From Pachysolen tannophilus NRRL Y-2460 (taxonomy: Eukaryota), in contig KV454018.1 in NCBI GenBank assembly GCA_001661245.1, forward strand, positions 377,944-441,943: DNA of 64,000 bases, given 5' to 3'. Numbering within the stretch: the first letter of the stretch is position 1; each line of letters opens with the position of its first letter. Under the pieces are notes generated by a model. That model did not search any database. It worked only from the letters and a program-made list of their open reading frames with translations, and was not told where the DNA came from. Of the stretch, positions 89 to 58,743 are shown one piece after another. The position numbers and the translations under genes were made by a program.

Positions 89-1855
89 ATGCTAATTCAG
101 TTTCGAAAATGGTATCTCAAACCTGATTGGAGTTTTCAGTTAAGTAGAGGTGGGCGTCGTTTTATACACCATGACCCAGGGAAATGGAAATCACAATGGC
201 AATGGCAATCGCAATGGCAATGGCAACGGCGGTTAGCAGTGGGGGAACAAAGAGGTTCTTTTGTAGGTTCTCAATTAATCTTGACGGGATTAAGTCTATG
301 TATAGGTTCAATAATTACAATTATTTATTACAAGAATAAGAATTTAATAAATAATGGCTCTTCTTACTTGACGTCATCAACAACGCCGTTAGATATCTTA
401 TTGTCCCCAAAATATGCAACAAAGGAGGAAATTGATATTGCGATAAGAGAGTTTATTCAGATTGTTGGTGATGACCACGTTTCTTGCTTAGAAGGAGATC
501 TTGAACATCATAGTGATTCTTTTTATAATGCTCACAAGGCTTTAAAAACTCAAAAACCAAGAGCTATTGTATATCCTTCTTGTACTCAAGAAGTTTCACT
601 GGTTATGAAAATATGTCATAAATATCATATTCCTGTTGTACTGTTTGGTGGTGGTACATCAATTGAAGGTCATTATGTAAATACTCGTAATGGTATATCT
701 CTAGATTTATCAAGAATGGATAGAATCTTGGAGTTTAATAAAAATGATTTGGACGTAGTGTGTGATGCAGGAGTTGGTTGGCAAGATTTAAACGAATTTT
801 TATCTCCTCATAACTTGATGATTGGTGTTGATCCTGGCCCTGGGGCACAATTAGGAGGAATGACATCATGTAATTGTAGTGGTACAAATGCATTTCAATT
901 CGGAACAATGAAAGAAAACGTCATTGGATTGGAGGTTGTACTTGCAGATGGTACAATTATCACCACTAGGCAACGTCCAAGGAAAACTTCTGCAGGTTAT
1001 AATTTAACAGGATTATTTATTGGATCTGAAGGAACTTTAGGTATTATTACAAAAGTTAAATTGAAAGTACATGTTAAACCGGAAAATGAAGGTATTATAG
1101 AAATCCAATTTGAATCAATTGAAGATGCAACAAATTCAGTTAAAAATTTGATACAAAAAAATATTAAATTAAATGCTATTGAACTTTTAAATAATAAAAT
1201 GATGCAAAGTTTAAATTTATCAAAACAATTACTGCATATTTATGAAGAAAAGGCAACACTTTTTTTAAAAATATCAGGTGCATCTCCATTAATTACAAAA
1301 GAAACAATAAAGCAAATTAAATTTGTAATTACAGATAACAATGCAACTTATTTTAAAGTTGCTACTAATGATTTAGAAAAACAAGAAATTTGGTCTGCTA
1401 GAAAATTAGCATTATGGTCAGCAATTCAATATGGGAAATCCGTCTTGGGTAATGACGCTCAAAGTATTTCCACTGATGTTGCAGTTCCGATATCAGACTT
1501 ACCGGAAATTATCAAGTTGACTGAGCATGACATTGAACAAACAGATGTAGTTGGTGTTATTGTTGGACATGTTGGAGATGGGAATTTCCATTCGTGCTTG
1601 AGTTTCAACCTGGAAAATGAAAAAAAAGCATGGGAAATTGCAGACAAGTGTGTTGAAAGAGCTGTTATTCAATTCCAAGGTACTTGTTCTGGTGAACATG
1701 GTATTGGATACGGTAAACGTAAATATCTAGAGTTGGAATTAGGTTCCCAAACAATTGATTTGATGAGAAGAATTAAAATGGCTCTTGATCCATTACGTAT
1801 TTTAAACCCAGATAAAATCTTGAAAATCGATCCAGCAGATATAGGTGAACACTAA
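89..1855 (+). CDS. DLD1: Mitochondrial D-lactate dehydrogenase (cytochrome), FAD-binding oxidoreductase/transferase type 4
   Basis: GGGTSIEGH, DPGPGAQLGGM, GSEGTLGIIT, GHVGDGNFH and SGEHGIGYGK motifs; basic N-terminal presequence followed by a TM segment. Confidence 0.9.
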   Translation: MLIQFRKWYLKPDWSFQLSRGGRRFIHHDPGKWKSQWQWQSQWQWQRRLAVGEQRGSFVGSQLILTGLSLCIGSIITIIYYKNKNLINNGSSYLTSSTTPLDILLSPKYATKEEIDIAIREFIQIVGDDHVSCLEGDLEHHSDSFYNAHKALKTQKPRAIVYPSCTQEVSLVMKICHKYHIPVVLFGGGTSIEGHYVNTRNGISLDLSRMDRILEFNKNDLDVVCDAGVGWQDLNEFLSPHNLMIGVDPGPGAQLGGMTSCNCSGTNAFQFGTMKENVIGLEVVLADGTIITTRQRPRKTSAGYNLTGLFIGSEGTLGIITKVKLKVHVKPENEGIIEIQFESIEDATNSVKNLIQKNIKLNAIELLNNKMMQSLNLSKQLLHIYEEKATLFLKISGASPLITKETIKQIKFVITDNNATYFKVATNDLEKQEIWSARKLALWSAIQYGKSVLGNDAQSISTDVAVPISDLPEIIKLTEHDIEQTDVVGVIVGHVGDGNFHSCLSFNLENEKKAWEIADKCVERAVIQFQGTCSGEHGIGYGKRKYLELELGSQTIDLMRRIKMALDPLRILNPDKILKIDPADIGEH

Positions 1856-2102
1856 TAGAATAGTTTAAAGAAATGTATAGTTTTGTATAATATATTATAA
1901 ATATATATAAACGCTTATTTTCTCGTTTTTTTTTTTATTTTTCAATTTATCGCGTTCTTTTAGGAAAAGTAAACAAAATCATAAATATACATAAATAATA
2001 TAAAGATTAGATGAATTGAAAAGATTTTGGAAGTCGCATCGATTAGATGATATCGGCGTAGCTAAAAGAAGAAGAAGGAAGAAGAATAGAAGAGGGAAAA
2101 CC

Positions 2103-4829: not shown

Positions 4830-4979
4830 AGATTTTCGAAAATGAAAATTATTATTTACTCATATATTAATAGGTATGAAATTTTTTAAAATAAACTGTT
4901 GTATAGTATACAAGAGAAGAAGAGAAGGATAAAATTTAATTAAAAAATAATGAGAAATAACAGTCATGTAAAAGGCGTT

Positions 4980-16419: not shown

Positions 16420-18924
16420 ATGTTGGATTTTATGAGTGGCCATATAAATGATGATAATAAAGATCTGCTGCATGTACAGCAAAATGAAGAAAGAGAGACT
16501 CTTTTGAAAAAACAAAAACTGAAATTAGCACAGGCAGAAGAGAGTTTGACATTCAAAGTGCCGAAAACAAATAATAATGTATTAAACGTTTTTCCGAATA
16601 CCGTGAGGAATACCGCTCCTACTGCGACTGCCACTACTGCCACTACTGCTACTACTGCTACTACTACGAATACCACTGCTGCTGCTAGTACTACTACTAC
16701 TGCTACTACGAATGCCACCGTTGCCGCTGATAGTAATGGCAATGGAAATTTAAAGATTAGAAAACACTCTTCGGATTCATCAAATAATCAAAGCACAAAT
16801 AATCCTCCAACTCCAGTGTCTTCGGCGAGATATACCCCTGATGGCACCTGTGAATTGGCTGATTTAACTTCACCGAGCAGTCTTGAAGAAGATTTATCCA
16901 ATAATAATAATAATAATAACAGTAATAATAACAATAGTGGGAACAGTAATGGTGGTGGAAATGTCCGTAACGAGAAAATTTCTAGTGTTAATTATACCTC
17001 TGTGAATAATGATAACGATAACGATAACGACAATAGTAACAATCATAATAATAACAATAACAATAACAATAACAATAACATTAACAATAACATTAACAAT
17101 AATAATAATAATAATATCAGTCATAGTGGTACTGCCAAAAGCAATCAAGTTGAATCGTCGTTATCAATTCAAAGTAGTAATACAATACTAGCAACAAAAG
17201 AAAATATTACTCTTCCCGATGTCATTAAAAATGAGGCTCTTAATAAAAATGGCATTGGTGAAAACTTGAGTAATAACAATACAAAAATCCCTCAGATAGA
17301 AGAGCCTATCCAAGAAGATTTCTTACTTGTTCCACCAATTTCAACAGAAATTCTGAATAGTACAAGTGAAAATTCATCAACATTATCTCAAAACAATAAA
17401 GATTCAAGATTAAAACCTCCATTTTTTAAATCAGGGCATTCAAATACATCCATAACTACTCATAGAAGATATACATCACCTTCAGCTAATGCATCTTCAA
17501 CTAATATAAGTCATAGAGGAAGTGTATCTTCAACTTCATCCAAGAATTTTTTTAAACCAAAGGCAACAAGACATTCAACTTTTCCACTATCTAATGATCG
17601 AGCTAATAGCGTTAGTAAAAACAATAGTGATAGTGCGACAAATATACTAGATCTGAATGATAATGCCTCTATAGCTACAGAAATTAAAAAGATGAGAAAT
17701 TCCATTGTTGCCAAAAGAGAAATTAAAAAAAAACGTAAAGAATTCTTGGAAGATGAAAGAGTGTTGGTTGGTAATAAAGTAGATGAAGGACACCAAAACT
17801 ATGTTATGGCTTATAACATGTTGACTGGTATACGTGTTTCGGTTTCTAGATGTTCAGGAATTCAAAAACCTTTAACTCTGAATGATTTTCAAGCAACAAA
17901 AAAATTAGCATTTGATATAGATGGCACTGAATTAACTCCTTCTTCAAAATATGATTTCAAGTTTAAAGATTATGCACCAGAAGTGTTCAGGGAATTGAGA
18001 TCTTTATTTGGTCTAGACCCTGCCGATTATTTAATGTCATTAACTTCAAAATATATTTTATCCGAGTTGGGTTCACCTGGTAAAAGTGGCTCTTTTTTTT
18101 ATTATTCAAGAGATTATAGATTTATTATAAAGACAATTCATCATTCAGAGCATAAACAATTAAGAAGAATATTACCAGAATATTTTAAACATATAAAGAA
18201 TAACCCTAATACATTTGTTTCTCAATTTTATGGACTTCATAGATTGAAAATGCCTTTTACAAAATCAAATGGTGTTAGAAAAGTTCATTTCATCGTCATG
18301 AATAATCTTTTCCCTCCAAGTAAGGATATTGATCGCCAATATGATTTAAAAGGCTCGACGGATGGTAGATATACAAACGAAAAAAAGGAAAAATCTCGTG
18401 GGAAAAAATCTATAGTTTATAAAGATTTAAACTGGTTAGAAAAACATCAAAAAATTACATTAACTCCACTGGATAATCTTACCGTGACTGCACAGTTAAA
18501 AAAAGATGTTGAATTATTACAAAGATTAAATATAATGGACTATTCCTTATTGATTGGAATACATAATATCACAAATTCCACTGAGGAAGATGAAACTAGA
18601 GCAAGACGATTCTCTGTTTTCCATCCACCAAATCCTGGTTCCGTATCTTCTACTATTCCTCAACTGATGAAACTTGATGATGTTGATGCTGCTGTGGCTG
18701 CAGAACTTGAGACTTCTGGAATAGAGTCTGTGGATCACAAACATATTTATTACGTTGGTATTATAGACTGTTTAACAAAATATTCAACAATGAAAAGATT
18801 GGAAACTGTAATGAGAAAGCTAAACCGTTCGAAAAATTTTAGCTGTATCAATGCAAAGGAGTATGGTAACAGATTTTTAAAATTTATTGGTGAAAATGTG
18901 TTTATTAAGGATAAGATAGATTAA
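16420..18924 (+). CDS. MSS4: Phosphatidylinositol-4-phosphate 5-kinase
   Basis: [50 protein letters not shown]; long Asn/Thr-rich N-terminus. Confidence 0.95.
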
Positions 18925-19337: not shown

Positions 19338-22300
19338 TTAGTGAAGGGTCTTAATAAAATTGTCCAAATTATATTCATCTTCATACTGAGCAGTATCCCA
19401 TAATTCTCCTAACTCACCAACAGCTGCACCTGCCGTACCTCCTAATCCCGCTTCATCCAAAGCTTCTGATTTTTCATCACCATTATCATCACCTTTTTCA
19501 TCCTTTCCTGAAGAACCTTGGTTGGAATCTGTGACTTCAAACAAATCTAACAATTGATTGGTATCCATAGACGATAATCCTGTATTTTGCTGATTAACAA
19601 TGGTGGAAGCAATGTTCATCTTGAATTTTTGCAACCCCATAATTTTCTCTTCCAATGTATTTTTAGTAATTAATCTATAAACATTAACAACTTTTTTCTG
19701 TCCTAATCTATGAGCTCTATCCATCGCTTGTAAATCGTTCATCGGATTCCAATCATGTTCCACAAAGATGACAGTATCAGCACCTGTTAGGTTAAGACCA
19801 AGACCACCAACTTTCGTAGTCAATAATAACACATCAATTGAAGGATCCTCGTTGAACTTACGAACAATCTTTTGTCTATCTCTCGGATCTGTACTTCCAT
19901 CTAATCTCATGTAAGTCACTGATGGCATATATTTTTTGAATAAATCATTTTCAACCATATCCAACATGTCCTTCAACTGGCAGAATATTAAAACCCTATG
20001 CTGACTGATAACACTTTCTGCGGAAGCTATTAATTGTTGTTGTTGTTGCCTTTGTTTTGAATCATTTACAGATGATACTGAATTATTACCTATTCCACAT
20101 TCCAATAACAAAGTTTGTAAGGACTGTAATTTAGGAGCATGTCTTATATCTCTAATGTCCATATTAGACTCCTTTAAGTATTGCATAACTTGATTATATT
20201 GAGGGTGATTTGGAGTGACCACTAATGCTGGATGATTACATAATTTTCTCATGTACTGTAATGCCTGGAAAATATGTTGTTTTCCTTCGGTAGCACCCTC
20301 GGTTGTAATGTCTTTCTCTACTTCAGTTTTCTGCTTCTTTGCAAAATATCTGTATAGCTGCTTCTGCAAATCACTTAATTCACAGTAATAATCTTGAATG
20401 ATCTTAGGAGGTAAATCTGATAAAACCTCTTCTTTCAATCTTCTCAACATGAACGGTAAAGTTTGTCTATGTAACGATTCCAATGCCAATGCACCAGCTT
20501 CTTGTTCCTTTGAAGAAGTCTTACTGTTCCTACTAGCAGCAATTGGCTTCGCAAATTTATCCTGGAAAACTTTTTCGCTACCTAAAAATCCAGGCATCAA
20601 GAAATCGAACAAAGACCATAACTCTAAAACATTATTCTGTATAGGGGTACCTGACAAAATTAATCTATGATTTGCTCTGATCCGCTTGACTGCCTTTGAT
20701 AATTTCGTCGAAGAGTTTTTAATAATATGACCTTCATCCAATACGCAATAATTATAATCATATTTACTTATAAAATCGACATCATTACGTGCAACATCGT
20801 AAGAAGTAACAATAATATCTGATTCATTAAACCCTGATCTTAATTGTAATCTCACTGAAGGACCTCCGGCATATACTAAAACTGATAATTTAGGAGCATA
20901 TTGATTTATTTCCTGCTCCCAATGGCCAGTTAATGATGGAGGACATATAATCAAAGAAGGCAATTTTCTTGATTCCACTGAATGTGTCTTATTATATTCT
21001 TCATCCCTTAAATGATGATCACTTGCCACTATACAAATGGTTTGCAAAGTTTTACCCAAACCCATATCATCACATAAAATACCGTGCAAGTGATATCTAT
21101 TCAAAAATGCCAACCAATTAACACCTTCCTGTTGATAACGACGTAAAGTGGCATTTATAGAAACGGGTAAATCAAATGGCTTAATCTTTGATGGGTCCAT
21201 CATTTGCTGAATAAACTCTCTTTCCCGATCTCTACCTTCCAACAACTCTTGAGGCATGTCTGGTGGATCCGGAATACCGGCTTCCAATGGAACCAATTTA
21301 ATGATAGATGCAAAGGTCGTAGGTGCCAATACACGAATATCAGGGTCAGAATCACTCATTCTTCCCAAGACAGGAACTATCAAAAATACAACATAAGGTA
21401 ATATATCGCTACCCATTGCTTGTGATAAATGATAAATGCACTCAATAGCACCTTGGCGCTCTCTTTTATCACCTGCGTTATTTAGCATTGGTAATACAAA
21501 CTTAACCAAATATGGGAAAATTTTAGAAGGTACAGTTGCACAAAACGCAGATAAAAATTTAGAAGCTGAATACCTAAATACAGAAAACTGCGATTTCAAT
21601 CCTGATACAAAAAATGGTAATTTTTCTAAAATAACATCATATAATTTTGGATCTAATTTCGGTATCAAAGTTTTCAATATTCCCAAAGCATCCACAACTG
21701 ATTGACCTGTACTATTTCCATTGTTTTCAACCTTAAAAACGACATCATCCAGTGACTTGTCCAATAATGACAAGGAATCAATCATTATTTCTTTTAATCT
21801 TGGAACTTCTTCAAAAATTTTGTCTTGATATATCTCCAAAAATCTTTCCAAGGCAAACTTAGCTCCTCTTCTCTTTATTTTAGCTTCATGACTTGATTTT
21901 TCAAATGCCGCGATATCAACAGGATCAGTACTAGCTTCTTCTTTTCTCAAAGATAAAATGATATCAAAAAATTCTCTGTTTGGTTGAAATTCAGGAACTT
22001 CAGAAGTATCAACACATAAAAATCCACATAAATTCTTGATAATTTTATCCGAAGAAACTTTCTTTCCAACTTTATTTAACTCTAATGCCAAATTACATAT
22101 AGCTTCTGCTGATCTTTTTTGTAATAATTCTTGATTTTCTAATTTAACACTATCCATAAGAGCTCTAATAATTGAATTTAATTTTTTAGGAAGTTCATTC
22201 AACAGTACAACGGCGGCAGCATAGGAAGCCAAGATACTAGTGCTTCTTTCTGCTTTGGCCAGCAATGAAACATCAATTGCTAATTGAACTCTTCCTTTAG

Positions 22301-25300
22301 CGTCTTCTAAAGCTTGATTTGCAGTAATCTTATAAGCTGGTGATAACGATTTCATTAATTTAATATATGTTTCATTTATGACAGTTTGAGCAGTAGCAAT
22401 TGAGAAAGCATCTGGACCTGCTTGAACTTCACCTTTCACTACCACTGGCAACTGTGGGATTTTATGAGGATTTACTTTACCTGCTTCTATGAAAGTGGTG
22501 AATAATTGTATTACTTGTGATCTTAAATTTTTTAAAGTTGGAACTAATTCTCTGAAGAACGGTAAATTAGATTCAGGATCATTCAAAACTGTATTTAATA
22601 TTGGTAATATATCATCTTTAAATAAATGATAAGGTTTCTTGTTTAAACGTATTGTTTCTTGGCAATATTCTTGTACAATAATACCAGAAAGTAATCTTGG
22701 AGTTGAATAAGGTGATTTCAAATAATTTTTAATTAATTCAACAATATCATTTAAATTTTCTTGTGTTTTATAATAGGCTAAACTTTTACCAAATTCAGAT
22801 GCTGCAGCAACTCTTGTTCCAATAAATATATCAATTCCAACTAAGGTAACATCACCACTAAACATTGAGGAATCAATATTAATTCTATTTTCATCAGAAA
22901 TAGGTATTCCAAGATTATTTTTCATTTCATTTTCTTCAATAGCAGGTGATTGTTTTCTTTTCCTCCCACGTACCAGTGTTCCATTATTGGTATTAGAAGC
23001 TGATTCATCTATATCAATTTCCATTGGTGTTGCAGATCTACTTACTTTACCAGGACTATCATAATTATTAAAAGATTTTTGTGATGTCCTTATCGAATTT
23101 GAAAAAGTGCTACCACTAGGTCTAACTATTAAACTGGTATTCATAGAATAACTATGCCTTGAGATACCTATTGGAGTCATTAATAAACTGAGTACTGCTT
23201 GAGCATGTTTAGCAAACATTATATCCATTGGAGGTAAATTATCATTATTATTTACCTCTGTTAAAATTTTGTTATAAACTTCAACTGATAATTCCAATAC
23301 ATTTTTATTTTGTTCAAATAAAATATTTTGGAAAATTAATCTTAACATTTTCCCATCTATAAAATCTTTAACTGTTAAATCTTCAATTGATAAAAAAGCT
23401 AATAAAGTTCTTAAAGCAGCTTTTCTAACATTAGTTATAGAATGTCTTAAAAATGGGTATAATCTTGGAACTAAATCTTTAAAACTTAAACTACTGTCTA
23501 ACAATGCATCTTTTTTCATTTTTTCCAAAACTTCTACATGTGAACATAATTTTGCTAAAAGATCCATTACAGAACCAATTGAAGCAGATAAATCATCTCT
23601 TAAATTTGTTAATGAATCCCAAATAACTCCAACAATTTGGAAAACTAAATCCAATTTCAATTTAACAAATTCTGAAGCAATTGGAATTAAAGTTGAAGCA
23701 GCAACACTTTGAACATCATCATCATTTTCATGTAAACCATGTAAGACCATTTCAATAATTTTATCTAATAATTCTGGATATTTAAATAATAAATCAGTTT
23801 TTGTACTTACAAAATATTTTAAAGCAGACATTCCACCATGTTTTGCTTCCCAACATGGAAGTTTTGATCCAAATTCCCAAGGTTTTTGTAAAACCAATTG
23901 AGTTAAAGCATTGAAAACTTTTAAAACAATATCTTCTGGTAAATGTATTAATAATGCAGCTAAAGCTTGTGCAGCATTTTCTCTTACAGGTGCAATAACG
24001 GTATCTGAAATATAATCACCAAATCTATCAATTGCAAGTAATGTTAAAATTCTAACACATAAATCTTCCAAAGTTTTTTTATTTCTAAAATCATTTTCTT
24101 GTCTTGATTTATTTCTAACTCTTCCTACTCCTTCTGCATGTTTTTTAACCAATTCTCTTAATCCCATAGTGGCACCATGTCTAACTTCCCATACATCATC
24201 ATATAAATCAATTAATAATAATTCATATAAACCTTGAAATGGCCAAACCCAATTTGAAACTTTTGAATCTTGAGAAAGATTAAGATGTTGCGATAATAAT
24301 TCTGAAGCTTTAGTTTCCACCACCAATTTATTACCATTTGATAATATATTTGCATTTTCATTTAAATTTGGATTTATTAAATCATCATTTGATTTCCCAT
24401 CTTTTACCAATTGCCTACTAATAGAACTTCTTGATAAATCAACAGTTCTAACTCTTGTTGAACTATTTTTAGCATCTGCTTTAGCCTTTCTCTTTGCCAT
24501 TGCTCTCATTCTTGCACTTTGCCTTGCTTCTGGTATTTTCTGTAATTGTTGTGCATCTGCTTCTGCTTTGAATTCTTGTTTGATCATGCTGCTACTACTG
24601 TTATCCAAATCTTCATCATAGTCCAGATCTTCCATTTTCATATCTACCGCTGATGCATCCGATTCCATCTTCACAACGTCTGTATCATCATTATTGGCGC
24701 CAGTTCCAAAAAGTTTACTTGCCAACAGCAATTTTTGTCTTTTCAAAGATTCTACTGGATCATATTCTCCATTGAAATTACCATTGCCATTGCCATTGCC
24801 ATTGCTATTGCTATTGCTATTGCTATTGCTATTGCTATTGCCATTATCACCATTGCCATTACCATTACCATTATTACAATTATTTCCATTTTCATTGTTT
24901 TCATTGTTTTCATTGTTACCGTTACTATTTCCTTTGAAATTATAAGCGCTATTTGAAAATTCGTTAAACTCCTCACCACCAGAAGCTAACAATTTCCTAC
25001 CGCTTTTCAAAATCTCTACCAAATTCCAATCATCAAGCGCTGCAAGACCTTCTTCTTGTTCTTTCAATAAATTCGACAAGTGCTCTTCTTCTTCTTCTTC
25101 TTCTTCTTCTTCTTCCTCGTCTTCTTCTTCATCATCAGTAGTAGTACTGTTACTTTTTTTCTTATTGTTGTTGTTGTTGTTGTAGTTATTAGTATCAGCG
25201 GGTACCACTTCATTTTCCGAGTTTGGGTCCCATAATGGAGCATTACCAATAACGCCACCAAATGCTTTTGCAGCTGCTATCCTCGTTTCCCATTTCTTAC

Positions 25301-33301: not shown

Positions 33302-35032
33302 ATTGAATTTCCAACGATATTATTACCCGATGGAGTTGTTGCTGGGTCTATAGTTAAGATCAAGTGTGAAAAAGATTCTGAATTAGAAAAAAATGAAATT
33401 GAACAATTTAATAGAATTCAACAAGAAATTTTAGAAAAATTTGGTAAAAATTTACCTAAAAATCCAATTTTAAAAATTAAAAATGTTACTCAAACAAGTT
33501 GTGTTTTAGAATGGGATAAATTAGAATTAAGTACAAGTAAGATAAAATCATTAATATTATATAAAAATGGTTTAAAATTAGGAAATATACCAAATCCTTT
33601 ACAAAATACAACAATTAAACTTTCAGGTTTACCAATTGATACACAATATAAATTTCAATTAAAATTATATACAACAGCAGGTGTTTTTAATTCAAATGAA
33701 ATTATTGTTCAAACTCATAAAATGACTGATCTTTCTGGTATTACAGTTTGTTTGGGTGAAATTGATGATCCAAAGATAACTTCAAATACAATTTCTAATA
33801 TTTTAAATAAAATTGGTGCAAAACCATTACAAGATAAAGTTAAAGTTGATACAACTCATTTTATTTGTACTAAACCAACTGGGAAAGAATGGAAACGAGC
33901 AATTGATAGTAATATCCCAATTGTAAGACCAGAATGGTTAAAAGCTTGTGAATTAGAAAGAAGAATCATTGGTGTTAGAATGTTTTATTTAGATGCTGAT
34001 CCAAGTGCTTTACAACAACATGATTATTGGGGTTCAGGTAAACTGAAACAAAAAGAACCATTGGATCTGGAGAAAAAGGATCAAGAAATTACAAATGGAA
34101 ATGGAAATGCTGATGGAAGTGGTGATGTGGGTGGAGAACAAGTATCATCAAATGGCGGTTCACAATTAGAAGATGCTGCTAAACTCACTGAAAACCTCGA
34201 AAAAGAACAAGACCCAAAACTGGATACTGAACCACATCCAGAAGAAATTGTACAGCTGCAAATTGTAGAACCTCCAATTGCTTCAACTGATGCTGTTACT
34301 GATGCTGTTACTGATGCTACAACGGAAGCTACCCCGGAAGCAACACTGGAAGCAACACTGGAAGCAACTGCAGTCACTACTGAAGCTACTGAAGCTACTG
34401 AGGAAACTAACGGTGATCTTTCCACAGAAGCTACATCAACTGTTCCAATCGATAATGGACAACTGCTGCTGGAAATTGCAAAAGAACAACTGCAACCACC
34501 GATAAACGGATTTGACGAAGTTCCAATTGATGATGAACTGCTGCTGCTGCCACTAGAACTGGAGCTGCCACTAGAACTGCTGCTGGAACTGGAACTGCCA
34601 CTAGAACTGCTGCTGGAACTGGAACCGGCACTAGCTGAGATTCCACCAGTAGCTGTTTCTGATGAAACCCAAGAAGAATATAAATTGGAAGAAGTTACTG
34701 GAGAAGATACAGCCAAAGAGATCGAACTGCCACTGCCGCTGCTGCTACCACTGCCGCTGCTGCTACCACTGCAACTGCCACTGCAAGAACCTGAACTGGT
34801 GCTGGAAGTAGAATCAAAACTGCAACTGGATTCATCAGAAGCTAAGGAAACAACAGAGGTAAATGGAGTTGAGAAAGAAGAAGAAGCAGGTGATGATGAA
34901 GGAGCTGAAGCACCTGAAGATGATGAAGCATCCGAGAACAACAATAATGCTGTAGAAACAAAAGATAACATAAATTCTGCTCCAAAAACGAACAGTAAGA
35001 AAAAAAACAAAAAGAAAAAGGGAAAAAAATAA
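33302..35032 (+). CDS. CHS5: Exomer core subunit Chs5 (true start codon unresolved)
   Basis: The frame of ORF 33722 extends upstream through [20 protein letters not shown] (33302), FN3 ([24 protein letters not shown]) and BRCT ([19 protein letters not shown]); acidic tail; [11 protein letters not shown] end. Confidence 0.9.
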
Positions 35033-36146: not shown

Positions 36147-37003
36147 ATGATGATGATGATAGCGTTGAAGAATCCACTGGTTGGTCATGTATTTAGAAAA
36201 TATCATCCACAACATCGATTTATTAGATTTTTCAATTTGACTAGTTTTAAATTTTCAGGGCATAATAAATGGTCATCCATAAAGCATGATAAAGCTAGAA
36301 ATGATATGGAGAGGAGTAAAGTAGCATTTAAGACAGCACAGCAGATAACTATGGCGGTGAAGTTAGGTGGGTCTGATCCTGTAGGGAATCCAGCGTTATC
36401 ATATGCTCTTGAAAAAGCCAAAAAATTAAATGTGGTTAAAAAAGTTGTTGAAAATGCAATTAAAAGAGGTATGGGTCAAGCTGGTGATAAGGATAATTTA
36501 GAGACTGCTGTATATGAGGGTATTGCACCTGGAGGGGTTTCTGTAATTATTGAGCTGCTTACTGATAATAAATCTCGTACTATTGGTTTTGTAAAACCAT
36601 GTTTTAGTAAATTTAATTGTCAATTAACACCAACTTTATATCAATTTGATAAAAAAGGTTTTATAACTGTTGATAGAGGTGATAAATCATTTGATGAGAT
36701 ATTTGAAGATATTGTAGAGATTGGATGTGAAGATATTGAAGAATTACCAATAGATGAAGAAGAAAATCCAGATGGAAAATTTTTAGAAATTATTACAGGA
36801 CCTACAGAAACTGGTCAATTTTCTAATGAATTGAAAAAAAAAATTATATTATAAAAGATGTTAGTATTGGATACCTTCCAAAGAAAGATATGATAGTTAC
36901 TTTAGAAAATGAAGATCAAAAACTGACTTTTGAAAAATTCATGAGATTAGTTGATGATATTGATGATGTCAGTAATGTATATACAAATTTAAAACAAGAT
37001 TGA
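36147..37003 (+). CDS. DPC29: Mitochondrial YebC/TACO1 family protein, with an apparent frameshift in an A10 run at about 36834-36843
   Basis: SGHNKWSSIKHDK, NAIKRG, YEGIAPGG, E-x-LTDN; the C-terminus continues in another frame (NYIIKDVSIGYLP...DDIDDVSNVYTN, TGA 37001-37003); divergent from VMA7 as YGR020C/YGR021W are. Confidence 0.85.
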
Positions 37004-43886: not shown

Positions 43887-44172
43887 TTTTTTTTTTAAAA
43901 CGGTATCAATCTATCAAAAAAATCAACTTTAATACCTTTCCAATATACATATATATATATATAAAAGTTTTAATGATTTTATTATTATTAGTATTTCAAA
44001 TCGTGCAATGAAGTTAACTATAATAATAATATAACGCACGTAATGTTAAGTAATAAAGTAGTAGTATTTTCCGAAAGTTTTTTAAGTAAAAAAAAAAAAT
44101 TAAAAATTTGCTGAAAAAAATTGAGAAAAATTAAAAATTTAAGGAAAAAGTGAGAAAAAGTAACAAAAATGG

Positions 44173-44306
44173 TGAGGGATGCGGGATTCGAACCCGCGCA
44201 TCGCAATGATACCACGGATCTTAAGTTTCGAAATCGTTTCTGGAAAAGTACTAAAAACGATTACTAGTTCCTAAACATGGCGCCTTAACCACTCGGCCAA
44301 ACCCTC
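44173..44306 (-). tRNA. tRNA-Leu, anticodon UAG, with a 52-nt intron (44269-44218)
   Basis: GAGGGTT acceptor, TGGCCGAGTGGTTAAGGC A-box, CCATG-TTTAGG^C-CGTGG anticodon arm, long variable arm, GGTTCGAATCC B-box, discriminator A, T5 terminator. Confidence 0.93.
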
Positions 44307-44799: not shown

Positions 44800-45849
44800 A
44801 TGAAAATTATTGCTTCAATCCACTTTATACTACTTTTTTCATTGTATTTAATTTCAGTCGAAAGTTGTGATTCTTGCAAAACTTCAACAGCTACAGTTTA
44901 TTCCTCAACTCTAAGTGTGACAACTTCAACTCATGTCAATGTGGTTGTGATCCACAGAAGCAGCAGCAGCAGTAGTAGTAGTAGTAGTAATTACTTAGCT
45001 GCTACTAGCTCAGGTCCAATTTCAATCCCAAGCTCAAGCTCTGTTTCAAGCGCAATTTCAAGTTCAAGTTCAAGCATGAGTAGTGCTTTCCCTTCTTTAA
45101 TTTCAAGTGTTGCTCCAGTTTTGTCAAGCACTTCACCATTACCTAGTTCGTCTTCTGTGCACTGTTCAGACGATAAATGTTCCACTTCTACGGCAACTGC
45201 TTATTCAACAATTAGTTCAGTGACAACTTCAACAAACACCAACATAATTGTGATTTCTCACTCAAAACTAGCATCAAGTATTTCAAGTAAGTTAACTTCT
45301 TTAAGTGCCTACACTACTTCTTCTAATTTACAACCTCAACCAATTACCACATACCTTTCAAGTACTTCAAGTTTTAATATCAATAGCTACCCTACAACAA
45401 GTATCGGAAATATTGAAAATTTTTCATCATCTAGTTCAGCAATCATTACAACAGTGGAAATCTCAGAAGTTACACTTACAACTACAGTACCATGCTCGAA
45501 TTCAGCTTATTCAAAAGAATCAAGTATTGATTATACCACAATTACATCCACTTTCTTAGAGTCTCAAACTCCTATAGCTACAACTAGCCCAAGCACCTCA
45601 ACCAGATCCACAGTGGTACCTAGCTCAGCTTCTAGTGTTTTGACACAAAAAGTTTTTTCAGCTTCAGATATTGCAGCCAAATCAACATTTACAAGTACAA
45701 GTGGTGCAGTTGGTACTAGCTCTAACAGTAGTTATACCAGTTCAACTAGTTCTAGTATATACATCTATGAAGGAGAAGCTTCCAAATTCTCCAGTTCTCC
45801 CTTATTCTTCAACTTACTCTTTTTTTTCACTTCTCTTTTCTTAATTTGA
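44800..45849 (+). CDS. Ser/Thr-rich GPI-anchored cell-wall protein
   Basis: Signal peptide, very high S/T content, CSDDKC and TLTTTVPC wall-protein motifs, YEGEAS followed by a hydrophobic C-terminal GPI signal. Confidence 0.85.
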   Translation: MKIIASIHFILLFSLYLISVESCDSCKTSTATVYSSTLSVTTSTHVNVVVIHRSSSSSSSSSSNYLAATSSGPISIPSSSSVSSAISSSSSSMSSAFPSLISSVAPVLSSTSPLPSSSSVHCSDDKCSTSTATAYSTISSVTTSTNTNIIVISHSKLASSISSKLTSLSAYTTSSNLQPQPITTYLSSTSSFNINSYPTTSIGNIENFSSSSSAIITTVEISEVTLTTTVPCSNSAYSKESSIDYTTITSTFLESQTPIATTSPSTSTRSTVVPSSASSVLTQKVFSASDIAAKSTFTSTSGAVGTSSNSSYTSSTSSSIYIYEGEASKFSSSPLFFNLLFFFTSLFLI

Positions 45850-45924
45850 ATCTCTTTGTATAGATCAACTGATAAGCGTTTCTCTGCAGTAAGCAGGCAT
45901 AAAAGAACAAAAAAAAATTTTTTT

Positions 45925-46183
45925 NTTNNNNNNNNNNNNNNNNNNNNNNNNNNNNNNNNNNNNNNNNNNNNNNNNNNNNNNNNNNNNNNNNNNNNNNNNN
46001 NNNNNNNNNNNNNNNNNNNNNNNNNNNNNNNNNNNNNNNNNNNNNNNNNNNNNNNNNNNNNNNNNNNNNNNNNNNNNNNNNNNNNNNNNNNNNNNNNNNN
46101 NNNNNNNNNNNNNNNNNNNNNNNNNNNNNNNNNNNNNNNNNNNNNNNNNNNNNNNNNNNNNNNNNNNNNNNNNNNNNNNNNNN
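45925..46183. other. Assembly gap (N run)
   Basis: Run of n flanked by poly-T/poly-A. Confidence 0.99.
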
Positions 46184-46189
46184 TTTTTA

Positions 46190-46225
<36 letters not shown>

Positions 46226-46306
46226 CAAGTGAAAAATTTTTGTTTTTAAACATTAGTTGTTTGTTCAAAATATATTGATAAATATATATAATTTGGTAGA
46301 GTGGAT

Positions 46307-49271: not shown

Positions 49272-50651
49272 ATGGCTTCAGGAGGGAAAAATCAAGATAA
49301 TGTTATTATTGATGAAAGGTTGACTGGGCCATTACAAGGGAATGGGAATGAGAATATGAGTTCAAATTTTTTCAAAAATTTGGATGAAAATCCATATATT
49401 GTTAGTGAAAATAATATTAAAAGTAGTGATAATAGTGGAGGACTTGTAATTAAGAGAAAAGAAAGAGCTGTTGTAATAGATGATGGAACTCCAATTCTGT
49501 TTGAAGATAAGAGAATAGATAAACAATCTTTAGAATATGTTGTTAGAAGTGGGGTCGCTGGAGGTATTGCTGGATGTGCTGCAAAGACATTAATTGCTCC
49601 ATTGGATAGAGTTAAAATTTTATTTCAAACTTCAAATCCTGATTTTAAAGAATTTAGTGGATCATTTAAAGGTTTATATAGAGCAATGAAAAAAATTTAT
49701 AAAACAGATGGTATTATTGGATTATATCAAGGTCATTCTGCAACATTACTTCGAATTTTCCCCTATGCAGCTATTAAATTTGTTGTTTATGAACAAATTA
49801 GAACAATTTTAATACCAAATGATAATTATGAAACTGGTGGTAGAAGGCTTTTAGCAGGATCTTTAGCTGGAATTGCAAGTGTTTTTTGTACATATCCTTT
49901 AGATCTTGTTAGAGTAAGATTAGCTTTTCAAACTGATCGTTATAAAACTTCTTCATCAAATCATTTATTTCAATTAATTAAAACAATTTATAATGAAAAT
50001 CCAAAATGGACTACAATTGATAATGTTAATTTGAAAAATGAAAATATGATTACAAGATTTTTAATTAATAGAGAACGTAAAGGTTTATCAAATTGGAAAA
50101 TTTTCCAAGCTTTTAATAATTTTTATAGAGGTTTTGCACCAACAATTTTAGGAATGATTCCATATGCTGGTGTTTCCTTTTATACACATGATTTAATTCA
50201 TGATATTTTTAGATCAGAATATTTAGCAGCATATACAGTGAAACAAATGGATAGATATCAGAGATTACGTAAGAAACGGAAAAGTTTACTTCGTCATGAT
50301 AATGATAATGATGATCAAAATAATGATGATGATAATGATCATGAAAAAAGTTCACATGATCATAGGATTCCTTTAAAATCATGGGCTCAATTAATTGCTG
50401 GAGGAGTTGCAGGAATGTTTTCTCAAACTGCTCTGTATCCATTTGAAGTTATTAGAAGAAGAATGCAAGTTGGTGGAGTTGTTAATAGTGGTCAATTTTA
50501 TGGAATGGGTAAGACTTGTTCAATAATTTTTAAAGAAAGAGGTTTTAAAGGTTTTTATGTCGGTTTAAGTATTGGATTCATCAAAGTTGTTCCAATGTTT
50601 GCCTGTTCATTTTATGTCTACGAAAGGGCTAAATCATATTTGGGAATTTAA
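49272..50651 (+). CDS. LEU5: Mitochondrial CoA carrier
   Basis: DKQSLEYVVRSGVAGG, APLDRVKILFQTSNP, QGHSATLLRIFPYAAIKF, NFYRGFAPTILGMIPYAGVSF. Confidence 0.9.
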   Translation: MASGGKNQDNVIIDERLTGPLQGNGNENMSSNFFKNLDENPYIVSENNIKSSDNSGGLVIKRKERAVVIDDGTPILFEDKRIDKQSLEYVVRSGVAGGIAGCAAKTLIAPLDRVKILFQTSNPDFKEFSGSFKGLYRAMKKIYKTDGIIGLYQGHSATLLRIFPYAAIKFVVYEQIRTILIPNDNYETGGRRLLAGSLAGIASVFCTYPLDLVRVRLAFQTDRYKTSSSNHLFQLIKTIYNENPKWTTIDNVNLKNENMITRFLINRERKGLSNWKIFQAFNNFYRGFAPTILGMIPYAGVSFYTHDLIHDIFRSEYLAAYTVKQMDRYQRLRKKRKSLLRHDNDNDDQNNDDDNDHEKSSHDHRIPLKSWAQLIAGGVAGMFSQTALYPFEVIRRRMQVGGVVNSGQFYGMGKTCSIIFKERGFKGFYVGLSIGFIKVVPMFACSFYVYERAKSYLGI

Positions 50652-51509: not shown

Positions 51510-51545
51510 TAACAAATAAATTTTTAATTATAGAATTATTTCAAA

Positions 51546-52490
51546 ATGTCTGTTTTAGCTGCTTCTACTTATGGGAAGGATAATGTCAAATTTCTTAAGG
51601 TGAAGAAAGATCCTTTAAACCCTAAGATTCAAGAAGTTATGGAAGCTACTGTTTGTGTGTTATTAGAGGGTAATTTTGATGTTTCATTTACTAAAGCTGA
51701 TAATTCACCAATTATTCCAACAGATACAGTTAAGAATACTATATTATTTGAAGCTAAGAAAACAGAGATTTTCCCCATTGAAAGGTTTGCAGCTCATTTA
51801 GGACAACATTTTATTAGAAAATATCTGCATGTTTCAGCAGTTAATGTTTCAATTATTCAACATCGTTGGTCAAAATATAATGTAAATGGACAATTACATG
51901 ACCACTCATTTATTAAAGATGGTGATGAAAAAAGAATTTGTAAATTAAGAAATGAAAGAAATGGGAATTATTTTATTGAATCTGGTTTAAAAGATTTAAC
52001 TGTTTTAAAATCAACAGGTTCAATGTTTTATGGATATCATCAATGTGATTATACTACTTTAGAACCAACAACAGATCGAATCTTATCAACTGATATTGAT
52101 GCTACATGGAAATGGGATACTAAGAAATTAGGTTCAATTTCCAATATAGCAAATGTTGCTTCAACAAACATTATAAATACAGGTACAAATGGCGAAAGAA
52201 ATAATTTATTTGATAATGCTTTTAATACTGCAAGAAAAGTTACTTTAGATATTTTTGCATTAGAAAATTCTGAATCTGTTCAAGCAAGTATGTATAATAT
52301 GGCTAGTAAGATTTTAGAACTTTGTAAAGAAATAAAAACGGTTTCTTATGCATTACCAAATAAACATTATTTCTTACTTGATTTTAAATGGAAAGGTGAA
52401 TCAAATGATAATGAAATTTTTTACCCATCACCACATCCAAATGGGTTAATTAAATGTACTGTTGCTAGAGACAATAGAGCAAAATTATAA
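51546..52490 (+). CDS. Urate oxidase (uricase), peroxisomal
   Basis: YGKDNV, DNSPIIPTDTVKNT, LTVLKSTGSMF, DRILST, SVQASMY, LPNKHYF; PTS1 AKL. Confidence 0.95.
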   Translation: MSVLAASTYGKDNVKFLKVKKDPLNPKIQEVMEATVCVLLEGNFDVSFTKADNSPIIPTDTVKNTILFEAKKTEIFPIERFAAHLGQHFIRKYLHVSAVNVSIIQHRWSKYNVNGQLHDHSFIKDGDEKRICKLRNERNGNYFIESGLKDLTVLKSTGSMFYGYHQCDYTTLEPTTDRILSTDIDATWKWDTKKLGSISNIANVASTNIINTGTNGERNNLFDNAFNTARKVTLDIFALENSESVQASMYNMASKILELCKEIKTVSYALPNKHYFLLDFKWKGESNDNEIFYPSPHPNGLIKCTVARDNRAKL

Positions 52491-52570: not shown

Positions 52571-52630
52571 TTTTTATATCTTTTTATATCTTTTTATATC
52601 TTTTTATATCTTTTTATATCTTTTTATATC
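52571..52630 (+). repeat. Decanucleotide tandem repeat (TTTTTATATC)x6
   Basis: Six perfect copies between the uricase stop codon and the 5S gene. Confidence 0.9.
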
Positions 52631-52723
52631 TTTTACTTGTGTATTTTAGTTATTAATCAATGAATCAATCTTTTAATCTTATTTTTACTTGCATTATCAC
52701 TTGCATTTTTTAGTTAGTATTTC

Positions 52724-52844
52724 GGTTGCGGCCATATCTAGCAGAAAGCACCGTTTCCCGTCCGATCAACTGTAGTTAAGCTGCTAAGAGCCTGACCGAG
52801 TAGTGTAGTGGGAGACCATACGCGAAACTCAGGTGCTGCAATCT
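52724..52844 (+). rRNA. RDN5: 5S rRNA gene (solitary copy)
   Basis: 121-nt GGTTGCGGCCATATCT...GGTGCTGCAATCT matching yeast 5S, followed by a T-run from 52857. Confidence 0.97.
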
Positions 52845-54177: not shown

Positions 54178-54219
<42 letters not shown>

Positions 54220-54629
54220 ATATATGAATTAAATAACTTAAAAGCCCATCGTCATCGACATCAACATTTAAATTTTTTTTTTTTTTTTTTTTGTTTTTTT
54301 TGTTTTTATTGTTTTCTGTTTTTTTTAATTTGGTTTTTTTTAAATTTGGTTCCTTTGTTTTTTTAGGTTATATTCCTGGCGCTTTTCTCTCTTAATCTCT
54401 AGCTATATATATATATATATATATTCATTCGCTTCGTTTGGTTCTTTTTCGGTTGTTGGGAGTTTTTATTTTTTGCCTATATTGATTTAGAAAAAAAAAG
54501 AAAAAAGAGAACGCACACTTCGCTGAGAATAAAAAGCCCAAGATTAAAAATAGAAAAAAAAAGAAGGAAAAGAAAACAGGATTAACTGGTTAGCATAATA
54601 ATCACTCGCTACAATTAAATATCATCAAT

Positions 54630-57600
54630 ATGTATAGACTAGTGCCTGGTCAAAATTCAAATTCACCATACCCTTCACCTTCACCTTCACATACAAATTC
54701 AAATTCACATACAAATTTACATACAAATTTACAGCTGCAGCCCCGGTCCCAGCCCCGGTCTTTTCAACAACGGCCTCATTTACATTATCAATCCCAATCA
54801 TTAAATAATATTTATCATCATACTTCGAGAACAAATTCAATTTCATCATTCAGGTCAAATGCTACAGAAGATACAATTTCTTCTCTGGTAACTGCAAGAT
54901 CACAACAAAGTAATCAGATTCCTAGAGATGTATCCACAGGATCTCTTTTTGATTTGGATCCAAAATTTATTAAAAAACCAAGACAAAAAGTTCATCAACA
55001 AAATAGACTGTTGCAATATCCAAAAAATAACTCCATCTCAAGTCTGAGTCTGTACCGACAACAACTGAACCCCAACTATCATCATCATCAACAGCTGCAG
55101 CATCAGCATCAGCAACATCAACAGTTTCAGCTTCAACAACAACAGCATCAACAACAGCTGCAGCTGCAGCTGCTTCTGCATTACAAGTACCAACAGCAAT
55201 TTCAAAAACCTTTACAGTATCGTCAAAGTGGCTCTTACCTTTTCCCCAACGGTGAAGTTTTCAGACCAAGGCAACATCCGAAAAATAGATCTGGTAGACC
55301 TCCAAAGATTTGTCCTCCTCCTCAACATGAGCATCAACAACAATCATTTCATTCTAGTTCGTCAATGCCAGATTTAGCTGGGAATCAATTTCAGCAGCAG
55401 CAGCAGCAGCAACAGCAGCAACAGCAACAGTGTGATATGTTGAAACCTCCTCCTACACAACTTAATATTAATGGAAGTACTTTTTTAGATGATAGTAATT
55501 TGCAGCTGTCCAAACAAGATCAAGATCAAAAACAAGAACATCAAGAACAAGAGCAACTGAACCTTCAATTTTCTGTATCACCAGTTATGGATCAGACACA
55601 TGATTCTGCTGCAGATACTTTAGAACTTCAGCCTCCTTCTGGTATCAATACTATTTCTAAAGAAAATTCAAGAAAGAGACTTTCTTCTTCATCTTCATCT
55701 TCTTCATCAAATTTACAACAAGTTTCCACTTCTTCTTCATCAGTATCAGTCAATGCAATCAACTCTTCTTCAAGTCCAAGCCCTTCAAGAGCTAATACTG
55801 ATACTCCAGCATCTTCTATCAACAATGATGAGTATCATGCATATTTAACACTGAACAAAATTGTGGCCAGAAATAATGCAAGTGTTTCAAATTTGCACAG
55901 TATTTCAAGCACCGATATGGAATCTATAGAAAGTTTCAGAAATATACATAATCCAGTATCGATCAAGGAAAATGGACAAGTTGAAGATGGTTCAATACAA
56001 TCAAAAATTCTGGTTGATTCTTCTAATAATGGTGGTGGTCATGGACATGTAGATGTTGGATTGTCAATGATTAGAGAAGTTAGTTCTAGCAGTAGGCTCA
56101 ACACAGAAATTGATAAAAATGCTAATGGAAGTTTAAAAGAAGACGCTGTGAATAAGATACGGGATTTAGATCAAAGTCCAGTAATTCTTGAAAATCATTC
56201 TCCATTAAGTAATAACTATGATGGCTCTGAATCAACTTTGACTGCTGCAGATAGTAATGGTATTGCTTCTACAATTGTATCTACAGAACTGCTGCAAGAT
56301 ACAGGACCTTCTTCAGTTGACAATTCTGTGCCGGAAGAAAAAACCCCTACGAATCCAGCAGTTGTTCAATCTTCGATACTGACACCACTACTCAATTCAC
56401 AAAATGCTATCAATGATCTGAAACCATCATTTCGAAGAGAAGTTCCAAAATCTCTGGCTCTTCTTAGGGAAGAGTTAGGAAGAACTAAAAAGAATGATAA
56501 GTCAAAGAAGCAATTTGGGTTTTCGAAGTTATTTCTGAAAGTTTTTTCATCTTCTGATAAGAAAATTGATACCCCACTGGTTCATCAAAAGAAATCTTCT
56601 TTTAATTCTCGAAATGGTAAGAAACAAAAATTTTTACCATCAGATATGAAGGTAAGTTATTTACAGAGAACTTTTTCATCTAATAGTTTACATAGCTTTG
56701 CCGATAAATTTCATAGTTCAGGGAAATCAGAATCGATTAATCTGAACCTGGAGAAGTTTTACGATTGTTTTGAAGAAGAAAGCTTACCATTACCTTCTGA
56801 AGATATAACAAATAGTATTGTTAATATTGATAGCATGACGAAAAGTGGTAGTGCATATGAAATTCATCTTGAAGAAGATTTAGAAAATGTTACTGAGTTT
56901 TTCATAGACTTCAAAGACTTTGATGGGACTAAAGATGTTGTTATAGAAGAGGACGAGACTGAATCTTTATTGAGTTTTTCTCCAAATGATGATAGCACTA
57001 TTAAAATTGGCAAACGAACAGAGTCCTTAACTGATGAACAAAATGAAATCCCTGATAAATCTCAAGAGAAATCACCATCTCGGATTATTTCTGAAAATAA
57101 TGGAAATGATGATGACATAATACAATTTGATGCTGAAGAGAAACTGTTATATTCAAAACTAATGCAAACAGGGGTAACGACATTCCCGGATTTGACTGAC
57201 AAGCAACTCGATGGAAATTTGACTGGAAGGGAATCGTTAATAAGAAGAAACACAACGGTTTCTTCACAGAGCTCAGATACATCAATGAGAACTGCCAGAA
57301 CTTCATCATCTTCAACTGCTAAATCCTTTGAGTTTGAGGACCAGGAATATGAACAGCAGTTTTATTACCAGCAAAGGCATCATGATGTATTGATCGACGG
57401 GAAAGAAATTGATGATTGTGGTGTTGTTTTGGATGACAAATTACAAATTATAACCAATAATGTTTCCAAAAGACCACTTTCTACAAAAGAAGCTATCGAT
57501 GCTCCTTTACTCAAGAAAGGTGTTTTGAAATTAAAAAACGAAAGAAATGACAGAAATGATAGAAACGATAGAAGCAATAGGCCATCATCTTCAAGAAGTT

Positions 57601-57845
57601 CTAGTGCTGCTAGTGGAGGCAGCATGGGTAAATCAAAGATAAGCTTTTCAAATAAGATCTACATTAACGACACTTATTCCTCCACTGATTATAACAGGTA
57701 TAACCAACAGTTAAAAGATAATTACCAACTATTATCGTGTTCTCCACAGATGATCAAAGAAATTAGAATGGAATTGAATAATTTTAAGGTTGCAATGGAG
57801 ATTCATGAATTGTCTAGACAAAACACCCACTTTTTCCATGTTTAA
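54630..57845 (+). CDS. AFR1: Afr1/YER158C-like (Bni4-related) Glc7/PP1-targeting protein
   Basis: YLFPNGEVFRP motif, C-terminal KISF RVxF-like motif plus NDTYS..DY.R...ELNNFK..MEIHE.SR..THFF; near STN1/RRP8/COG3, the neighbours of AFR1/YER158C in S. cerevisiae. Confidence 0.7.
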   Translation: MYRLVPGQNSNSPYPSPSPSHTNSNSHTNLHTNLQLQPRSQPRSFQQRPHLHYQSQSLNNIYHHTSRTNSISSFRSNATEDTISSLVTARSQQSNQIPRDVSTGSLFDLDPKFIKKPRQKVHQQNRLLQYPKNNSISSLSLYRQQLNPNYHHHQQLQHQHQQHQQFQLQQQQHQQQLQLQLLLHYKYQQQFQKPLQYRQSGSYLFPNGEVFRPRQHPKNRSGRPPKICPPPQHEHQQQSFHSSSSMPDLAGNQFQQQQQQQQQQQQQCDMLKPPPTQLNINGSTFLDDSNLQLSKQDQDQKQEHQEQEQLNLQFSVSPVMDQTHDSAADTLELQPPSGINTISKENSRKRLSSSSSSSSSNLQQVSTSSSSVSVNAINSSSSPSPSRANTDTPASSINNDEYHAYLTLNKIVARNNASVSNLHSISSTDMESIESFRNIHNPVSIKENGQVEDGSIQSKILVDSSNNGGGHGHVDVGLSMIREVSSSSRLNTEIDKNANGSLKEDAVNKIRDLDQSPVILENHSPLSNNYDGSESTLTAADSNGIASTIVSTELLQDTGPSSVDNSVPEEKTPTNPAVVQSSILTPLLNSQNAINDLKPSFRREVPKSLALLREELGRTKKNDKSKKQFGFSKLFLKVFSSSDKKIDTPLVHQKKSSFNSRNGKKQKFLPSDMKVSYLQRTFSSNSLHSFADKFHSSGKSESINLNLEKFYDCFEEESLPLPSEDITNSIVNIDSMTKSGSAYEIHLEEDLENVTEFFIDFKDFDGTKDVVIEEDETESLLSFSPNDDSTIKIGKRTESLTDEQNEIPDKSQEKSPSRIISENNGNDDDIIQFDAEEKLLYSKLMQTGVTTFPDLTDKQLDGNLTGRESLIRRNTTVSSQSSDTSMRTARTSSSSTAKSFEFEDQEYEQQFYYQQRHHDVLIDGKEIDDCGVVLDDKLQIITNNVSKRPLSTKEAIDAPLLKKGVLKLKNERNDRNDRNDRSNRPSSSRSSSAASGGSMGKSKISFSNKIYINDTYSSTDYNRYNQQLKDNYQLLSCSPQMIKEIRMELNNFKVAMEIHELSRQNTHFFHV

Positions 57846-58239
57846 ACTGAATGAAAGGTGCATTTTTTTTTTCTTTTTTTCTTTCTTTTCTTTCTTTTTT
57901 ATTTATTAATTATTGTTGTTGGTTCATTTTATTTTTATTTTATTTTCTGTTCATATCATTTCTTGATTAATCTTATTTTGTGTCTTAATGTTCTTTGACA
58001 CTTCTTTTTTTTTTTTTTAATTTAACTTTAATAACTTACTTAATTCTTCATATTACTTTTATTAGTACCGACTTTTTCTTAATTTGAGAACTGTTGTTCA
58101 ATAATTTACTTTTAGATAATAACTTAATACAGATTTTCAATCGAACTTTACAATGTGTTATCCTTTTAAATAAAATAAATTAATTACTGTGAAAACAAGT
58201 TAAAAAGATCAAATAAAAAAAAAAATGAAAGTGAAAAAT

Positions 58240-58743
58240 TTAACTACCACGATATGTAGTATAACTATGATTTGACAAAAGCAATGGAACATGATAATGA
58301 TGATCAGGAGGTTCATTGACTTCAAATATAACATCAATAAAGGGGAAAAAAGTTCTATTTTGTGAATTTTGTGTATCCAGACTTGGTAAAGTCTTGAAAT
58401 ATTTCAGAGTTTGAAATCTAATCTTATAAATTCCCGGAATTAATACAGTCCAAGTACCATTACTTATACCTATTTTCTCGCCCGTAGCATTAGTCAATTT
58501 AGGGTCAATAGTCCATTGTCCAACTCTACCGTCTTTATTGGATTTCGCAAGAGCAAATGGTTTAATTGAAGTTTCTGTATCTTCATAGTAATCGCCATCG
58601 ATATTGCTATTACCGTTACCGTTACCGTTTGCACCAGCACCAGCACCAGCACCAGATAAACAAAAAATCGCACAAGTAACGTTAGCAGCCGGTCTACCAT
58701 TAGCCGTATCCAAGATATGACAAGTTATCGGATCATTAGCCAT
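58240..58743 (-). CDS. 5-hydroxyisourate hydrolase (transthyretin-like)
   Basis: PITCHILDTANGRPA, DGRV, GIYKIRF, FFPFIDVIF, HYHVPLLLS, C-terminal YRGS signature. Confidence 0.95.
   Translation of the reverse strand: MANDPITCHILDTANGRPAANVTCAIFCLSGAGAGAGANGNGNGNSNIDGDYYEDTETSIKPFALAKSNKDGRVGQWTIDPKLTNATGEKIGISNGTWTVLIPGIYKIRFQTLKYFKTLPSLDTQNSQNRTFFPFIDVIFEVNEPPDHHYHVPLLLSNHSYTTYRGS

Follow-up and report, generated by a model that had tools for sequence, protein, structure and literature searches.

Which amino acid does CTG encode in the 64-kb stretch of yeast DNA analysed here (contig KV454018.1, positions 377,944 to 441,943; hereafter the window)? An earlier reading of its letters and translated frames (the sequence-only reading) had proposed that CUG most likely encodes alanine instead of leucine. 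It pointed to CTG codons in TACO1 (36555), LEU5 (50433), DLD1 (641), RPP1 (27632), 5-hydroxyisourate hydrolase (HIUase; 58407, minus strand), MSS4 (17878) and uricase (51825), and all seven were recovered in frame, at these positions and with the flanking residues it gave. Across a set of 28 open reading frames (ORFs; ATG to stop, at least 150 amino acids (aa)), CTG accounted for 127 of 15,454 codons and occurred at least once in 23 ORFs (82%). Its proposal held: alanine ranked first both in homologue columns and in Pfam scores, the deposited record reads alanine, and the responsible tRNA as well as mass spectrometry data have been published. We are nearly certain that the window represents nuclear sequence from Pachysolen tannophilus, or from a near-identical strain, and that its CUG codons follow the alanine code of NCBI table 26, as published.

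Homologues of four proteins were aligned with MAFFT, comprising 120 rows for DLD1 (of which three from the organism itself were excluded), 120 for MOT1, 150 representatives for MSS4 and 110 for RPP1. For each codon of the window, the homologue residues in its column were tallied, with the query left uncounted and an occupancy of at least 70% required. Leucine-rich CTG columns, the observation that the sequence-only reading had named as pointing to the standard code, were not seen. Leucine formed the majority in 0/12 CTG columns compared to 8/11 CTA columns (Fisher p = 3.4e-4), and at the rate found for the other five leucine codons (252/356) the binomial probability of 0/12 was 3.9e-7. The mean share of leucine among the homologues was 0.04 at CTG columns versus 0.676 at columns of the other five leucine codons. 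Conversely, CTG was absent from all 309 columns in which leucine made up at least 50% of the homologue residues, which agrees with the earlier remark that CTG is missing from conserved leucine positions. That remark had also covered HSH155, where all three CTG codons lie in the first 232 residues, a weakly conserved and badly aligned N-terminal region. As a control, the columns of three of the proteins (n = 2,755) returned the standard amino acid for 60 of the 61 sense codons, CTG being the sole failure.

Under the standard code, CUG would be leucine and the CTG codons would stand at variable positions by chance. Most CTG sites did fall in variable columns, some of which contained leucine (MOT1 aa 1065, 19/120; MSS4 aa 684, 13/150), and a tRNA-Leu(UAG) encoded in the window could in principle read CUG by wobble. 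The counts above nevertheless stand against this explanation, as do the log-odds at the 12 alignable CTG positions, calculated from 3,038 columns of the four proteins. These were -2.9 bits for alanine, -3.9 for proline, -6.5 for serine, -8.0 for glutamate and -25.3 for leucine, with the remaining amino acids, including threonine and glycine, at least 12 bits under alanine. The window alone firmly argues for rejecting leucine as the meaning of CTG and, with the Pfam scores and the alanines of the deposited protein (both below) also against it, we regard the standard code as next to impossible here.

Leucine was seen at some CTG columns in three automatically translated rows, P0123, P0394 and P0244, the closest relatives for MOT1, RPP1 and MSS4, respectively. 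The positions concerned were MOT1 aa 827, RPP1 aa 137 and MSS4 aa 749 and 34, at which nearly all other rows were non-leucine. Another yeast of the alanine clade may share these CTG codons, with the leucines there arising from translation by the standard table.

Which amino acid replaces leucine was compared with Pfam by translating the ORFs with CTG as leucine, alanine or serine (tables 1, 26 and 12), and also as proline or glutamate. Among these five meanings, a difference in bit score equals the log-odds of the residue in the matched columns. Summed over 18 domains containing 26 CTG sites, the score was 3177.2 bits for alanine, 3170.9 for serine, 3167.1 for glutamate and 3149.0 for leucine. 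For the 17 domains that could be scored with proline, the sums were 3126.8 (alanine), 3121.5 (serine), 3108.2 (proline) and 3100.6 (leucine). Alanine equalled or exceeded leucine in all 18 domains, its sum being 28.2 bits higher, and led serine by 6.3 bits, glutamate by 10.1 bits and proline by 18.6 bits (the last over 17 domains). Two candidate meanings were discarded on this basis. Proline, second in the column log-odds and the dominant residue in 2 of the 12 CTG columns, was set aside for its 18.6-bit deficit, and the Elongin_A domain fell under the listing threshold when CTG was read as proline. Glutamate had come first in the column test when three proteins were used; it dropped to fourth once RPP1 was added and stood 10.1 Pfam bits under alanine.

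A number of observations weigh against alanine. The four aligned proteins hold 20 CTG codons, but only 12 could be aligned, the other eight (three of them in MOT1) standing in columns less than 70% occupied. Among the 12, alanine was the majority residue in a single column (MOT1 aa 1084), near-invariant proline occupied two (DLD1 aa 185 and RPP1 aa 54), and the margin of alanine in the columns was only 1.0 bit over proline and 3.6 bits over serine. By domain, alanine scored higher than serine in nine, equal in three and lower in six, and Adaptin_N preferred serine by 2.4 bits. Even domains free of CTG shifted by up to 2 bits between leucine and the other readings (PPP2R1A HEAT, 81.9 to 83.9; Helicase_C, 86.4 to 85.2). 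No tRNA with anticodon CAG was found in the 64-kb window by ARAGORN, in its default or intron search, or by Rfam. Finally, the match to a deposited Pachysolen protein concerns one gene, with no Pachysolen record among the matches listed for MOT1 and RPP1 and with the MSS4 matches listed without names.

Some of these points can be qualified. The two CTG codons in proline columns (DLD1 641, RPP1 27383) are proline-to-alanine replacements under table 26, which is plausible if CTG came from CCG, a single base away. Between alanine and serine the CTG-free domains shifted by at most 0.1 bit; the leucine contrast in Pfam is thus somewhat noisy, whereas the alanine-serine contrast is small but clean. 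Small differences in any single domain should not be over-read. Judged from the window alone, alanine would be the best reading of CTG, with a small lead and with serine still compatible.

Serine is accordingly the meaning that has to be weighed most closely, either as in the Candida-type Ser1 clade (NCBI table 12) or as in the Ser2 clade of Ascoidea and Saccharomycopsis. Serine came second in Pfam, above alanine in the six domains mentioned, and was common in two CTG columns (DLD1 aa 382, S43 T32; MOT1 aa 1235, S35). A 2014 conservation analysis by the group that later reported the alanine code had indeed called Pachysolen a CUG-Ser yeast (PMC4986446), and the weak alanine-serine contrast in our data fits such a call from conservation alone. 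Against serine, it was only third in the column log-odds and below alanine in both tests, and the conserved TACO1 site, given in the sequence-only reading as alanine or cysteine, was C, A, C, A and A in five solved homologues and never serine. The same reading had used the tRNA-Leu(UAG) of the window as an argument for alanine over serine. The tRNA is there, and the argument stands against the Candida-type clade, which is reported to have lost this tRNA (PMC4937558); it has no reach beyond Ser1. On this choice the sequence-only reading was surer than its motifs justified, because within the window alanine, although first, leads by only 6.3 bits in Pfam and 3.6 bits in the columns.

What settles alanine over serine is the species, because CUG=Ala was discovered in P. 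tannophilus. The best match of the DLD1-like ORF was PACTADRAFT_82648 (P0003) of Pachysolen tannophilus NRRL Y-2460, at 99% identity. From about aa 67 onwards the two sequences are identical apart from the four CTG codons, all of which are alanine in the record, a 4/4 agreement that is annotation and not measurement. The first ~66 residues of the ORF (89-290, plus strand) are unlike the deposited N-terminus (536 aa vs 588 aa), because the deposited model of the gene starts elsewhere or includes an intron. As reported in PMC4937558 (2016), the CUG=Ala code of this species was demonstrated by tRNA-Ala(CAG) together with mass spectrometry. The tRNA is described there as an alanine tRNA, with G3:U70, A73 and without a long variable arm, and alanine as the residue at 97.2% of the 907 CUG positions for which fragment ions gave full support. 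With both of these reported for the organism concerned, we consider serine very improbable. The clade sharing the alanine code is given as Pachysolen, Nakazawaea and Peterozyma (PMC5951914). The sequence-only reading was therefore correct that the variant is already described, in PMC4937558 and as NCBI table 26, and CUG=Ala is not only known for this DNA but already applied in its deposited annotation.

By the published mechanism, the tRNA reading CUG in the window would be an alanine tRNA in all but its CAG anticodon, with the identity elements listed above, and alanyl-tRNA synthetase (AlaRS) would charge it. Alanine would be inserted because this synthetase does not read the anticodon. The other CUN codons would remain leucine, read by leucine tRNAs, of which the tRNA-Leu(UAG) of the window, with its intron, is one. 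For the window itself, we infer from the literature (PMC4937558) that a tRNA-Ala(CAG) exists and that alanine is actually incorporated.

The presence of tRNA-Leu(UAG), as claimed earlier, was borne out by Rfam (RF00005 at 44173-44306, minus strand, 44.3 bits) and by the intron search of ARAGORN, which calls tRNA-Leu(tag) at 44170-44306; default ARAGORN found no tRNA in the window because this one has an intron. Features of the tRNA are a G:C pair at 3:70, A35, G37 and A73, a long variable arm, a U6-U67 mismatch in the acceptor stem and a T5 terminator for RNA polymerase III (Pol III) downstream. A further rival explanation is mixed decoding, in which CUG would be mostly alanine with a meaningful share of leucine through wobble by tRNA-Leu(UAG), comparable to the stochastic serine/leucine decoding in Ascoidea asiatica. 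The tRNA looks intact (Pol III T-run, canonical intron position, G37, A35), dual CUG decoding is known in that other yeast (PMC6041473), and PMC4937558, which reports that Pachysolen keeps tRNA-Leu(UAG), describes the modification of U34 that would stop it reading CUG as presumed. Against this stand the 97.2% alanine and the statement in the same source that the non-alanine remainder at CUG does not exceed the corresponding remainder at AUG, an unambiguous codon; the DNA is silent on the matter. We consider mixed decoding extremely improbable and retain alanine as the meaning of CUG.

Comparison with known codes placed the window with table 26 without any difference: the organism is the same, CTG avoids leucine columns, alanine ranks first, by small margins, and tRNA-Leu(UAG) is kept. 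The share of ORFs with CTG (23/28) also matches the published share of 80% of genes (4,210 genes with 16,824 CUG positions; PMC4937558). The table 12 code of Candida and Debaryomyces (Ser1) has in common with the window the reassigned codon and the scarcity of CTG, found mostly at non-conserved positions. It differs in inserting serine via tRNA-Ser(CAG) and in the reported loss of the tRNA-Leu(UAG) that the window possesses (PMC4937558), and the table 12 reading lies the stated 6.3 Pfam bits under alanine. In the Ser2 clade, the same codon was reassigned independently in budding yeasts (PMC5951914, PMC6041473). This case differs in lineage and in tRNA, with tRNA-Leu(CAG) and tRNA-Ser(CAG) reported to compete, and the window matches Pachysolen instead. 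A further parallel is found in the mitochondria of Ashbya (Eremothecium), where CUU/CUA=Ala is reported to have arisen when a tRNA accepting alanine, having gained G3:U70, captured leucine-box codons (PMC4937558). The principle that AlaRS ignores the anticodon is shared, whereas the code is mitochondrial, the codons are others and the tRNA has another origin.

At the level of individual sites, the residues given in the sequence-only reading were compared with those of homologues. DLD1 641, given as small (A/G/P), was proline in 116/117 homologues, while the other DLD1 columns read E39 K23 G19 (599), S43 T32 (1232) and P52 D26 (1610). RPP1 27632, also given as small, had G49 A45 S9 T3 L2 of 110 homologues, and RPP1 aa 54 was proline in 103/109. 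The MSS4 site at 17878 was non-leucine, as that reading had it (D75 E17 P17 A9 S8 of 145). MOT1 columns were A69/120 at aa 1084, S21 A20 L19 at aa 1065 and S35 G17 at aa 1235. The remaining sites were compared with solved structures, a weak source of columns in which the top matches are often variants of one protein. HIUase 58407, given as small, was alanine in the HIUase-TTR ancestor and glycine in four variants of one zebrafish HIUase, and uricase 51825, given as non-leucine, was asparagine in Aspergillus uricase (one species, five solved variants). The LEU5 site, for which the sequence-only reading gave QTAAYPF, was V, V, S and T in solved carriers, all of them distant. Pfam scores were also compared for single proteins. 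For TACO1, Transcrip_reg gave 100.7 (leucine), 102.0 (alanine), 100.5 (serine), 98.7 (proline) and 98.8 (glutamate), and Uricase gave 224.3, 226.6, 226.8 and 228.5 (leucine, alanine, serine and proline). The LEU5-like carrier (leucine 226.2, alanine 226.2, serine 226.0) did not discriminate.

CTG codons were unevenly distributed, 64 of the 127 occurring in the two low-complexity ORFs of Table 1. In the BRCT-domain ORF, CTG outnumbers GCN (39 vs 32) and would supply 39 of 71 alanine codons, partly in CTG-CTG-CTG(-CTG) runs. Under table 26 the repeat region reads AAAAPLEAEAPLEAAAEAEAPLE.... Its EAT-x repeat has CCG, CTG, CTG and GCA at x. Within the repeats CTG stands at alanine places, CTA supplies every leucine adjoining proline (P-L-E or L-P, 6/6), and CTG and CTA do not exchange. 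This fits a difference in meaning between the two codons, the copies being few and recent. In the Gln-rich ORF several CTG codons interrupt glutamine runs (QQAQAQALA), CAG to CTG being one base change. That the reassigned codon was recruited preferentially into young, low-complexity, alanine-rich sequence is an idea we regard as doubtful. A minus-strand ORF at 34081-34971 (296 aa) was rejected as a gene, having no Pfam match and being a CAG-rich mirror of the CTG repeats in the BRCT ORF.

The window has a G+C content of 29.5% and carries a dense gene set of budding-yeast type. This includes a DLD1-like D-lactate dehydrogenase, BUB1, GPI16, HSH155/SF3B1, an adaptin, MSS4/PIP5K, MOT1, RPP1, CSL4, TACO1, two mitochondrial carriers, uricase, HIUase, Stn1 and COG3. 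Uricase and HIUase, encoded ~6 kb apart, act one after the other in the breakdown of urate. A solitary 5S rRNA gene stands between uricase and the Gln-rich ORF; 5S is therefore dispersed in the window, with no rDNA repeat at that place. Single N letters occur at 16, 38, 45925 and 49178, and a run of 256 N at 45928-46183 marks either a gap in the assembly or sequence that was withheld. A minus-strand ORF at 45765-46253 spans this run and was discarded as an artefact.

Table 1 Coordinates of the features discussed, with the CTG codons they contain.
Feature	Position (strand)	CTG codons	Remarks
DLD1-like ORF	89-1855 (+)	599 (aa 171), 641 (aa 185), 1232 (aa 382), 1610	all in frame
MSS4/PIP5K ORF	16420-18924 (+)	8, including 17878-17880 (aa 487)	
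MOT1 ORF	19338-25454 (-)	six; first bases 24728, 24626, 22976, 22262, 22205, 21752	
RPP1	(+)	two, within 27383-27634: 27383 (aa 54), 27632 (aa 137)	
BRCT-domain ORF	33722-35032 (+)	39	35 CTG in Ala/Glu/Pro/Thr-rich repeats (aa 191-375)
TACO1/YebC ORF	(+)	36555-36557 (aa 137)	motif IIE-x-LTDN
tRNA-Leu(UAG)	44170-44306 (-)		85-nt mature; 52-nt intron between positions 37 and 38
LEU5-like mitochondrial carrier	(+)	50433-50435 (aa 388)	
Uricase	51546-52490 (+)	51825-51827 (aa 94)	
5S rRNA gene	52724-52844 (+)		Rfam RF00001, 90.2 bits
Gln/Ser/Asn-rich ORF	54630-57845 (+)	25	1,071 aa; no Pfam match
HIUase	58240-58743 (-)	58405-58407 (aa 113); 58380 (aa 122)	second CTG in indel

Conservation in a 64-kb window says little on alanine versus serine, and the history of this yeast runs the same way, with serine assigned in 2014 and corrected to alanine in 2016. 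The choice of table has practical consequences for the proteins of the window. The standard table would write 127 residues in 23 of the 28 ORFs as leucine instead of alanine, and the Ala/Glu/Pro-rich repeat region would appear hydrophobic and rich in leucine. The leucines in the rows of close relatives hint that public, automatically translated proteins of such relatives have leucine wrongly assigned where CTG codons are shared. Since (CTG)n is (GCT)n in another frame, a poly-alanine tract under the alanine code stays poly-alanine in two of the three frames. If CUG-Ala was recruited into such sequence, these tracts could tolerate frameshifts and be prone to expand. The practical message is that this genome is to be translated with NCBI table 26.

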